From Eledone cirrhosa (lineage: Eukaryota): 64,000 nt of DNA. The notes under the pieces are model-generated. The model saw nothing but the letters and a program-made list of their open reading frames with translations. It was not told where the DNA came from and did not search any database. Shown here in pieces: positions 30,451 to 32,624 of this stretch (position 1 is its first letter; each line of letters starts with the position of its first letter). The DNA is taken from the NCBI GenBank assembly GCA_964016885.1, contig OZ024747.1:47492001-47556000 (forward strand), written 5' to 3'. The position numbers and the translations under genes are program-made.

Positions 30451-30524
<74 letters not shown>

Positions 30525-30666
30525 CGAATATTCTATGTCTATATTCACATATATATCGCTATTTCAGAGCATTTATTCCAATTTCTAATTTCTGCCGGAC
30601 CGGCAACCGCTCTTTCAAACCAGTTCCTGTACACAGCTAAGTATTCTATAAGTCTCTAGCTGTGTC

Positions 30667-30755
30667 ATTCTCGATAAAAGCACTGGATATGTAGTCCTGA
30701 TGATTTCTAACGAGAATGAAACGCGTAGATTACTTCCCTTGCTTTTATCGAGAAT
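30667..30755 (+). ncRNA. Type I hammerhead ribozyme motif, array copy 1
   Basis: GTAGTC-CTGATGA-T-TTCT(AACG)AGAA-T-GAAA-CGCG-TA^GATTAC. Distal stem I ATTCTCGATAAAAGCA/TGCTTTTATCGAGAAT (16 bp perfect). Predicted cleavage at 30727/30728. Confidence 0.85.
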
Positions 30756-30976
30756 CTAATTGTAATACGTGACGTATTCTATTCTATAGCGATTAGGTCT
30801 TCAAAATGTTTATTATAAACATACAGAATATTTTCGAATATTCTATGTCTATATTCACATATATATCGCTATTTCAGAGCATTTATTCCAATTTCTAATT
30901 TCTGCCGGACCGGCAACCGCTCTTTCAAACCAGTTCCTGTACACAGCTAAGTATTCTATAAGTCTCTAGCTGTGTC

Positions 30977-31065
30977 ATTCTCGATAAAAGCACTGGATAT
31001 GTAGTCCTGATGATTTCTAACGAGAATGAAACGCGTAGATTACTTCCCTTGCTTTTATCGAGAAT
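30977..31065 (+). ncRNA. Hammerhead ribozyme motif, array copy 2
   Basis: Same motif as copy 1, +310. Confidence 0.85.
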
Positions 31066-31286
31066 CTAATTGTAATACGTGACGTATTCTATTCTATAGC
31101 GATTAGGTCTTCAAAATGTTTATTATAAACATACAGAATATTTTCGAATATTCTATGTCTATATTCACATATATATCGCTATTTCAGAGCATTTATTCCA
31201 ATTTCTAATTTCTGCCGGACCGGCAACCGCTCTTTCAAACCAGTTCCTGTACACAGCTAAGTATTCTATAAGTCTCTAGCTGTGTC

Positions 31287-31375
31287 ATTCTCGATAAAAG
31301 CACTGGATATGTAGTCCTGATGATTTCTAACGAGAATGAAACGCGTAGATTACTTCCCTTGCTTTTATCGAGAAT
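31287..31375 (+). ncRNA. Hammerhead ribozyme motif, array copy 3
   Basis: Same motif, +620. Confidence 0.85.
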
Positions 31376-31596
31376 CTAATTGTAATACGTGACGTATTCT
31401 ATTCTATAGCGATTAGGTCTTCAAAATGTTTATTATAAACATACAGAATATTTTCGAATATTCTATGTCTATATTCACATATATATCGCTATTTCAGAGC
31501 ATTTATTCCAATTTCTAATTTCTGCCGGACCGGCAACCGCTCTTTCAAACCAGTTCCTGTACACAGCTAAGTATTCTATAAGTCTCTAGCTGTGTC

Positions 31597-31685
31597 ATTC
31601 TCGATAAAAGCACTGGATATGTAGTCCTGATGATTTCTAACGAGAATGAAACGCGTAGATTACTTCCCTTGCTTTTATCGAGAAT
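31597..31685 (+). ncRNA. Hammerhead ribozyme motif, array copy 4
   Basis: Same motif, +930. Confidence 0.85.
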
Positions 31686-31906
31686 CTAATTGTAATACGT
31701 GACGTATTCTATTCTATAGCGATTAGGTCTTCAAAATGTTTATTATAAACATACAGAATATTTTCGAATATTCTATGTCTATATTCACATATATATCGCT
31801 ATTTCAGAGCATTTATTCCAATTTCTAATTTCTGCCGGACCGGCAACCGCTCTTTCAAACCAGTTCCTGTACACAGCTAAGTATTCTATAAGTCTCTAGC
31901 TGTGTC

Positions 31907-31995
31907 ATTCTCGATAAAAGCACTGGATATGTAGTCCTGATGATTTCTAACGAGAATGAAACGCGTAGATTACTTCCCTTGCTTTTATCGAGAAT
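31907..31995 (+). ncRNA. Hammerhead ribozyme motif, array copy 5
   Basis: Same motif, +1240. Confidence 0.85.
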
Positions 31996-32216
31996 CTAAT
32001 TGTAATACGTGACGTATTCTATTCTATAGCGATTAGGTCTTCAAAATGTTTATTATAAACATACAGAATATTTTCGAATATTCTATGTCTATATTCACAT
32101 ATATATCGCTATTTCAGAGCATTTATTCCAATTTCTAATTTCTGCCGGACCGGCAACCGCTCTTTCAAACCAGTTCCTGTACACAGCTAAGTATTCTATA
32201 AGTCTCTAGCTGTGTC

Positions 32217-32305
32217 ATTCTCGATAAAAGCACTGGATATGTAGTCCTGATGATTTCTAACGAGAATGAAACGCGTAGATTACTTCCCTTGCTTTTATCG
32301 AGAAT
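32217..32305 (+). ncRNA. Hammerhead ribozyme motif, array copy 6
   Basis: Same motif, +1550. Confidence 0.85.
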
Positions 32306-32624
32306 CTAATTGTAATACGTGACGTATTCTATTCTATAGCGATTAGGTCTTCAAAATGTTTATTATAAACATACAGAATATTTTCGAATATTCTATGTCT
32401 ATATTCACATATATATCGCTATTTCAGAGCATTTATTCCAATATATATATATATATATAGTATATCTACTAACATATGCGTACAGATGTACGCTAATGCT
32501 AGCAAATACATAAGTTATGTCATAGTACCTAGGTGGTTCAATGCAGGAGGATGCAGAACAATAATATGAAAGACGTAAAATAAGAAAATTTTTTAAAAAA
32601 TTTAAAAAATTAACTTACTTACTA

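Follow-up and report, generated by a model that had tools for sequence, protein, structure and literature searches.

A young and abundant hammerhead retrozyme family in Eledone cirrhosa, likely copied as circles by a Penelope-like reverse transcriptase from both ends of broken (TA)n targets

We analyzed a window of 64,000 nucleotides from contig OZ024747.1 of Eledone cirrhosa, in which positions 30518..32442 of the plus strand hold a one-armed retrozyme insertion of 6.21 identical 310-bp units. The 310-bp periodicity is exact over these 1925 bp, with 100% matches. On the left, the truncated inner end is joined to its (TA)n target (30451..30521) via a few shared AT bases, and the array's first bases are not separable from the target. 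On the right, the array stops at the family's fixed tail end, the fixed 3′ end that borders the second (TA)n target (32442..32459), through a junction with 983 exact matches in the genome. Counting the array's 3′ end as unit position 310, the predicted ribozyme cut falls after position 145. The unit has a GC content of 34.5% and, when looped, a longest open frame of 59 codons; the tandem is non-coding and without LTR organization. An earlier note on this DNA had described 6.2 identical, ORF-less units in (TA)n, and these measurements bear that description out. An open frame with reverse transcriptase (RT) and GIY-YIG domains is absent from the unit, and consequently the insertion is not an autonomous Penelope-like element.

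Every unit contains a stem I of GTAGTC/GATTAC, the CTGATGA box, the segment U-[TTCT AACG AGAA]-U, the GAAA box, a palindromic ACGCGT and a GUA triplet. By pattern, six of six motifs are type I hammerheads with an intact core on the plus strand, located at 30691..30733, 31001..31043, 31311..31353, 31621..31663, 31931..31973 and 32241..32283, with predicted cuts after 30727, 31037, 31347, 31657, 31967 and 32277, respectively. One hammerhead per unit and six cleavage positions had been listed before; the pattern is present and the predicted coordinates agree. An Rfam scan of 7 kb returned no hammerhead match, a scan of 431 bp returned Hammerhead_HH9 alone (15.8 bits, E 0.43, below the gathering score of 52), and neither scan found ribozyme families other than hammerhead. 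The motif was also unmatched by Rfam Hammerhead_1, the model against which the earlier note had proposed to check it.

The motif's geometry combines a helix I of 6 bp, a helix II of 4 bp and a helix III of 1–2 bp with a palindromic loop. The available text of PMC4209133 defines both the canonical metazoan type I hammerhead and the minimal hammerhead of Penelope (min-HHR), the latter having a helix II of 7–8 bp, a short helix I and a dispensable helix III. By those definitions, the predicted motif belongs with the canonical metazoan type I hammerheads and not with the 'minimal' type I form that had been proposed; its 4-bp helix II and 6-bp helix I rule out a min-HHR identity. The short palindromic helix III is predicted to favor cleavage as a dimer. 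The G10.1-C11.1 pair that closes helix II is lacking, its place being taken by U-U or, in 14 insertions, by A-U, and an older sister family likewise closes helix II with U-U or A-U. The U-U mismatch, raised earlier as a caveat, is present, but as an objection it is weakened by the A-U in 14 insertions and by the axolotl HHR_Amex2 motif, which has the same U-U at the base of helix II and yet cleaves (PMC7229834, in the text available). Eight of nine Xenopus retrozymes tested in a 2026 vertebrate survey were without cleavage, according to its accessible portion (10.64898/2026.07.22.740005).

Beyond the hammerhead, the minimum free energy (MFE) fold of the unit contains all of the additional helices noted previously: a 16-bp helix that prolongs stem I, together with AGAATATT/AATATTCT and ATAGCGAT/ATCGCTAT. 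The 16-bp helix, formed on the plus strand of the last unit by 32217–32232 with 32290–32305 (32217..32305), has compensatory changes relative to the sister family. The fold is more stable than those of shuffled sequences, both as a linear monomer (z −3.9, 1 of 100 shuffles equally stable) and as a circular one (z −3.6, 0 of 100). The minus strand of the array also folds strongly (z −5.0), and a search of that strand found no hammerhead motif; the array does not have the ribozymes in both polarities of a viroid-like or ambisense element.

A candidate internal promoter of the snRNA type, AATT-N29-CCAG-TATA, lies on the plus strand of the last unit (32137..32200) and might, tentatively, put a transcription start near 32227. 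This three-part pattern, composed post hoc, occurs in 14 of 14 snRNA upstream regions, in the unit and in 1.3% of 5,000 shuffles, and a narrower pattern occurs in 16 of 21 sister-family segments. A weight matrix from nine U1/U2 upstream regions found no promoter in the unit, with 161 of 300 shuffles scoring equally.

We next consider the family to which the array belongs. In the 3.0-Gb genome, the exact 43-nt ribozyme has 4,033 matches and its degenerate form 15,921 copies, each with a reversed control of 0; one tail-less junction form has 429 exact matches. The family is dispersed, high-copy and mobile, and rough division yields more than a thousand near-clonal insertions. With 4,033 exact matches of the 43-nt ribozyme and none of its reversed control, the repeat is not an assembly artifact; the 310-bp unit is also contained in contigs of public runs, whose kind is unrecorded. 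The retrozyme family is real and young. Taking a metazoan non-LTR retrozyme to be a tandem non-coding unit of about 150–450 bp, with less than 50% GC and without LTR organization, the earlier assignment to that class agrees with the unit, with the motif in every unit and with the copy number.

To describe its insertions, we sampled 70 stretches, all on one contig, consisting of the first 10 ribozyme loci and 60 more that were selected by their tail end; together, they span the first 64 of the 983 junction matches. The sample and the window provide 73 insertions, from which 5 that were cut by an edge or by N were set aside (L048, L050, L070, L075 and an edge-cut neighbor in L051), leaving 68 with resolved architecture. 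Variant and junction counts omit L041, which has an internal rearrangement, and the edge-cut neighbor in L051; the arm-length count also omits L075, and the mirror count omits L059 and L083. The single-unit count leaves out variants that lie closer than about 55 nt to an inner end.

Among the 68 resolved insertions, 63 are two-armed, head-to-head arrays with their 3′ ends outward, and 5 are one-armed, the window's copy among them. In all 63 two-armed insertions, one arm ends at about position 310 and the other ends 26–38 nt earlier. The same pairing of a tailed with a tail-less arm is present in 9 of 9 two-armed loci whose selection relied only on the ribozyme, and in 54 of 54 partner arms at loci chosen by the tail end. 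Of 70 tailed arms, 65 match the unit up to base 310. The 62 tail-less arms match up to base 275 (31 arms), 272–273 (5), 277–279 (3) or 284 (23), the end at 284 being indistinguishable from the TA target. The outer ends adjoin TA repeats in 131 of 132 cases; the flanks are mostly pure (TA)n, where target-site duplications are unreadable (29 loci looked at). Insertions have a median size of 8.3 units and a maximum of 24, with single arms of up to about 19 units.

The window's last unit ends in the Penelope-type 'tail' (32408..32442, plus strand), which measures 26–38 nt, mostly about 35, across the family and is found on one arm only in two-armed insertions. The tail belongs to a structured 3′ module of about 110 nt (32333..32442, plus strand) that is 78% identical over 97 nt with the sister family. 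We infer that both fixed 3′ ends, which lie within this module, are RT start sites. The earlier note had expected copies with differing circular permutation points; genome-wide, the 3′ ends are fixed at two sites and the inner ends alone vary, with a slightly non-uniform distribution (KS p 0.026). With 3′ ends at two fixed sites, random circular permutation of the ends is rejected.

According to the accessible text of 10.1101/2021.04.23.441226, insertions of Penelope-like elements have an inverted 5′-truncated copy, a 30–40-bp tail on one end and a (TA)n bias. Judged by its layout, the two-armed footprint is this Penelope 'inverted copy plus tail' footprint, and the mobilization by Penelope-like elements that had been suggested earlier gains support from the inverted copy and tail in 63 of 68 insertions and from (TA)n at 131 of 132 ends. 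A Penelope-like protein, studied in purified form, was found to nick both strands and to extend them, with internal starts at two tail-bounding sites (PMC11167929). Because a start within the RNA does not depend on a free 3′ end, it would suit a circular template.

The two arms of an insertion differ in ways that bear on how they were made. In 62 insertions, the longer arm is the tailed one in 29 and the tail-less one in 22, with similar lengths in 11; a near mirror in arm length is found in just 2 of the 62, and the inner phases of the two arms are unrelated (5 close versus 6.2 expected). Arm lengths nevertheless correlate (rho 0.43, p 4e-4), as expected if both arms were made at once. The 63 central joins consist of 41 without and 22 with filler; the filler-free joins have a mean microhomology of 2.4 nt, compared with 0.76 nt in simulation, and several fillers match pieces of the 310-bp unit. 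The microhomology and the filler suggest end joining of two cDNA tips.

Within an insertion, the units across both arms share one haplotype, and 28 haplotypes are present in 60 insertions. We counted 31 variant types that are fixed in all units of an insertion and 82 single-unit events in 674 units, whereas intermediate-frequency variants are found in 7 insertions only. A fixed variant that is private within the sample, and that may still occur elsewhere in the genome, distinguishes 13 insertions and is present in up to 24 units. Mirroring between arms is found for 1 of 45 testable rare substitutions, a count that is weakened because many of the unmirrored variants could have arisen after insertion. 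The inner ends do not cluster at the predicted cut site: 4 of 126 lie within 3 nt of it, versus 2.8 expected. The rolling-circle copying proposed in the earlier note is thus supported genome-wide, by one haplotype per insertion and a cut site that is read through. A few loci depart from this pattern. Both arms of L083 switch haplotype in the same way at a distance of two units from the 3′ end; in L067, a variant is present in the terminal unit alone, in both arms; and L059 is an unmirrored haplotype mixture with a switch within one arm. The mirrored L083 and L067 and the mixed L059 indicate that copying probably involves linear multimers or template switches on occasion.

We then asked how the inherited variants relate to the RNA structure. 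Where pairing is confident, fixed variants preserve 8 pairs and disrupt 0, and for single-unit variants the numbers are 7 preserved and 22 disrupted (p 1.7e-4); seven fixed variants break MFE pairs of low probability. The common inherited changes to the ribozyme affect the variable N7, loop II, wobble positions and position 10.1, the last turning U-U into A-U in 14 insertions. Fewer fixed than single-unit variants hit the catalytic core (0 of 31 versus 6 of 82), a difference short of significance (p 0.19). A pattern for the older sister family matches up to 1,321 times, with a few of these matches belonging to the window's family; the sister family has the 3′ module and the tail geometry in common, with its helices rewritten. 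In an 18-row alignment of six family-A and 12 sister-family sequences, 83.9% of cells are paired; both sides have changed in 13 of the 29 pairs, a number of both-sided changes that is reached by 28 of 500 shuffles. Covariation in these 18 rows, which rests largely on the split between the two families, is 0.359, compared with 0.231 when shuffled and 0.075–0.146 when slid, and is above 500 of 500 shuffles. Both the inherited variants and the sister family preserve the helices.

The inherited substitutions have a bias of their own. A>G accounts for 9 of 27 inherited substitution types and for 6 of 70 single-unit ones (p 0.005), and the 9 inherited A>G types compare with 3 T>C (p 0.035); write-back of RNA editing and selection for G-U pairs predict the same enrichment. 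A fuller scheme, in which a pair of Penelope-type enzymes copies a single 310-nt circle from both break ends simultaneously, each enzyme is locked to its own start and the family evolves as RNA, through A-to-I edits in the helices of the circle that are written back into the genome, is conceivable, and we put it forward with more doubt than belief.

The genome encodes open frames with RT and GIY-YIG domains, 636–938 aa long; hammerhead-like motifs closed by a U-U pair are present in some of the elements. We scored 150 of 10,596 partner candidates. Sharing of the 3′ module beyond chance was found in none of 50 GIY-YIG loci by BLAST, nhmmer and shuffle-controlled alignments; only sister retrozymes matched. 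When the 3′ ends of three Penelope-like families were aligned with the unit, 14, 132 and 196 of 200 shuffles were as good, compared with 0 of 200 for the sister-family control alignment, and no sequence link was found between the window's family and the Penelope-like families examined.

We now combine these observations into a proposed mechanism. Transcription would begin from an internal, possibly snRNA-type, promoter, and predicted self-cleavage at each hammerhead, probably as a dimer via the ACGCGU palindrome, would release 310-nt monomers that a host ligase could close into circles. A GIY-YIG endonuclease would nick both strands within (TA)n. One of the resulting DNA ends would then prime at an internal site, the tail end, and its counterpart would start on the same circle some 35 nt upstream of that site. 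Two rolling-circle cDNAs would then grow together, and their tips would be united by end joining. At the window's copy, only the priming at the tail end would have been completed, and the cDNA tip would have joined (TA)n directly.

Near-clonal arms, inner ends that ignore the cut site and the ability of either arm to be the longer one together favor twin-primed rolling-circle reverse transcription. Twin-primed copying of one monomer circle is favored over fold-back priming, satellite expansion and multimer templates. Our confidence differs between its components: membership among the retrozymes is nearly certain, Penelope-type mobilization is highly probable, twin priming is very probable and a monomer circle is likely to be the usual template. 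Taken as a whole, we regard the insertion as a young, abundant retrozyme whose circles are likely copied by a Penelope-like RT from both (TA)n ends.

Several alternatives could account for part of these data. An uncleaved linear multimer could serve as the template for Penelope-type twin priming, with a weak ribozyme and without circles as an intermediate. The variants of L083 and L067, mirrored unit for unit in both arms, are what it would produce; unprocessed RNA is the main substrate in vitro (PMC11167929), and inner ends would ignore the cut site here too. A linear template is hard to reconcile with 28 haplotypes in 60 insertions and with the fixation of a new variant across both arms, in as many as 24 units, which needs a one-unit bottleneck, and less strongly with the 1 of 45 rare substitutions that is mirrored (L059 and L083 left out), a count weakened by post-insertion variants. 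We consider this route unlikely as the general explanation, and it probably explains a minority of loci. Array growth at the DNA level, by unequal crossing-over or slippage after a Penelope-type insertion of a monomer, is very improbable: both inverted arms are multimeric with one haplotype, arm lengths correlate, and intermediate-frequency variants occur in 7 insertions only versus 82 single-unit events. Later DNA-level amplification is proposed for vertebrate retrozymes in the accessible part of 10.64898/2026.07.22.740005, and repeated variants in a few long arrays (L051, L050, L070) suggest later duplication in the present family.

The inverted arm might instead arise from fold-back, through self-priming or copying of the first arm, as modeled for head-to-head Penelope repeats (PMC3846280, in the text available). 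A few joins lie within the unit's own hairpins, such as a 16-nt overlap in L045, but either arm can be much longer (29 versus 22), 2 of 62 insertions are near mirrors and the phases are unrelated, which largely refutes fold-back and leaves it hardly credible. If the arrays were produced through a series of template jumps from one cleaved linear monomer to the next, haplotypes would be mixed and joins scarred, whereas single-unit variants at positions 143–149 number 1 in 674 units and the inner ends have no pile-up at the cut site; such jumping is extremely improbable, even with inherited one-base insertions 2 nt past the cut site in several haplotypes and a change of haplotype inside one arm of L059. 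The 100% unit identity and the lack of a significant Rfam match would fit an assembly artifact or an ordinary satellite with a chance motif; for the family, this explanation is refuted by 15,921 copies, locus-specific haplotypes, fixed ends and compensatory sister-family changes, as well as by the unit's presence in contigs of public runs, and its probability is negligible.

Twin-primed copying of a monomer circle joins two questions, namely how animal retrozymes move and how Penelope-like elements make inverted repeats and a one-sided tail, the latter having competing models. On both, the family offers countable evidence, which points to independent priming of the two arms, a strict pairing of their start sites, copying through the cut site and a bottleneck of one unit. 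The 110-nt RNA module and the 310-nt circle are named as targets for direct tests with a purified enzyme.

In the literature covered, with subscription papers, repeat databases and supplements mostly lying outside it, there was no description of the window's family or of two-armed, tail-paired, clonal retrozyme insertions; the accessible part of PMC6431247 holds nothing on retrozyme insertion structure. This is a new family of a known class, the metazoan non-LTR retrozymes, whose insertion footprint we have not found in print. Like the retrozymes of coral, Mytilus and axolotl (PMC7229834) and those of the vertebrate survey (10.64898/2026.07.22.740005), in the text of each that is available, it is built of tandem units of roughly 300 bp that are non-coding and poor in GC; each unit carries a single canonical type I hammerhead and has a highly paired fold, and the copies number in the thousands. 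Expression and cleavage have been demonstrated for those retrozymes, whereas for the window's family transcription and cleavage are predicted. Two-armed insertions, paired fixed 3′ ends, a tail and per-insertion clonality characterize the window's family and are not described in the same portions of the two papers. There, PMC7229834 presents primed copying of retrozyme circles by Penelope-like enzymes as a hypothesis, and 10.64898/2026.07.22.740005 links retrozymes to Penelope terminal repeats, favors local satellite-like amplification and calls the mechanism unresolved. Newt satellite 2 is likewise a tandem hammerhead repeat, and it cleaves as a dimer (PMC7229834, PMC2220036, in their accessible text); helix III is 2 bp in the window's family. 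For the snRNA-type internal promoter of satellite 2 (PMC2220036, citing the original work, in the text available), the window's family has a candidate counterpart in the form of a post hoc pattern that failed the weight-matrix test.

The insertions resemble those of endonuclease-positive Penelope-like elements in their inverted 5′-truncated copy, 30–40-nt tail and (TA)n or AT-rich targets. Penelope-like elements also have two internal starts with both strands extended (PMC11167929) and a hammerhead in their terminal repeat, according to the accessible parts of 10.1101/2021.04.23.441226 and PMC3846280. In vitro, the Anolis element inserted without requiring cleavage and with no strand difference in its start site (PMC11167929), whereas start sites in the window's family are strictly one per arm. 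Unlike Penelope-like elements, the family has no ORF, and its arms are multimers that reach about 19 units. In the twin priming of LINE-1, the second target strand primes on the same RNA, which yields a head-to-head inversion and a microhomology join. Compared with LINE-1 twin priming, the starts in the window's family are fixed and internal, the arms comprise multiple units and there is no poly(A).

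The array's left neighbour is an element that runs from 29187 through 30450 of the window, and its end lies in the same (TA)n in which the array sits. Its inverted pair (29187-29381 and 30037-30231, 95% identical) flanks (AGA)n and 39-bp tandem repeats, and the element carries a hammerhead-like motif at 30264. It is probably another two-armed insertion of the Penelope type. Other hammerhead-like motifs are found in short elements adjoining simple repeats, at window 6540 (-), 24399 (-), 36398 (+) and 36594 (-); those at 36398 and 36594 are oriented toward each other.

A 273-aa frame on the reverse strand (window 7448-8272) ends in a stretch that by eye resembles GIY-YIG; a Pfam search of the frame returned no match, and we consider it a likely fragment of a Penelope-like element. 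Elsewhere in this genome, reverse transcriptase (RT) frames of 636-1096 aa are present in Penelope-like families, at loci L131, L132 and L139 (3' ends), L133 and L134. The L131 family has a fixed end point within (TA)n, and the flank of locus L049 shows what appears to be another end of this family, about 65 nt before the fixed one. The window also holds LINE-like coding fragments, judged by eye (2794-3552, 25316-25885 and 41905-42366), and two 199-bp tandem repeats (35121-35533 and 62941-63522), which we take to be SINE-like in look. The genome's U1 and U2 genes (L151-L180) have in common the upstream motifs AATT near -90, TCAGT at -57 and TATA near -30.

Among public runs of unrecorded kind, X2 and X1, which carry different organism codes, each contain a single contig of 340 nt that matches the window haplotype at every base (window 30796-31135 in X2 and 32040-32379 in X1), while X3 contains thousands of contigs across the stretch. 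Within each of the retrozyme insertions L083, L067 and L059, two haplotypes coexist, mirrored from arm to arm in L083 and L067 and unmirrored in L059; these are the best cases for studying multimer templates or template switching.

An older sister retrozyme family (L181-L210 and L102:2440-2870), with a unit of about 315 bp, forms two-armed, mostly short insertions. Its 3' module and tail are the same as those of the window family, and its helix III has 3 bp. A third family (L147:5216-5300, L139:7591-7668 and L136:683-708), whose alignment scored above all of 200 shuffles, has the ribozyme core and stem II in common with the window retrozyme, but not the 3' module.
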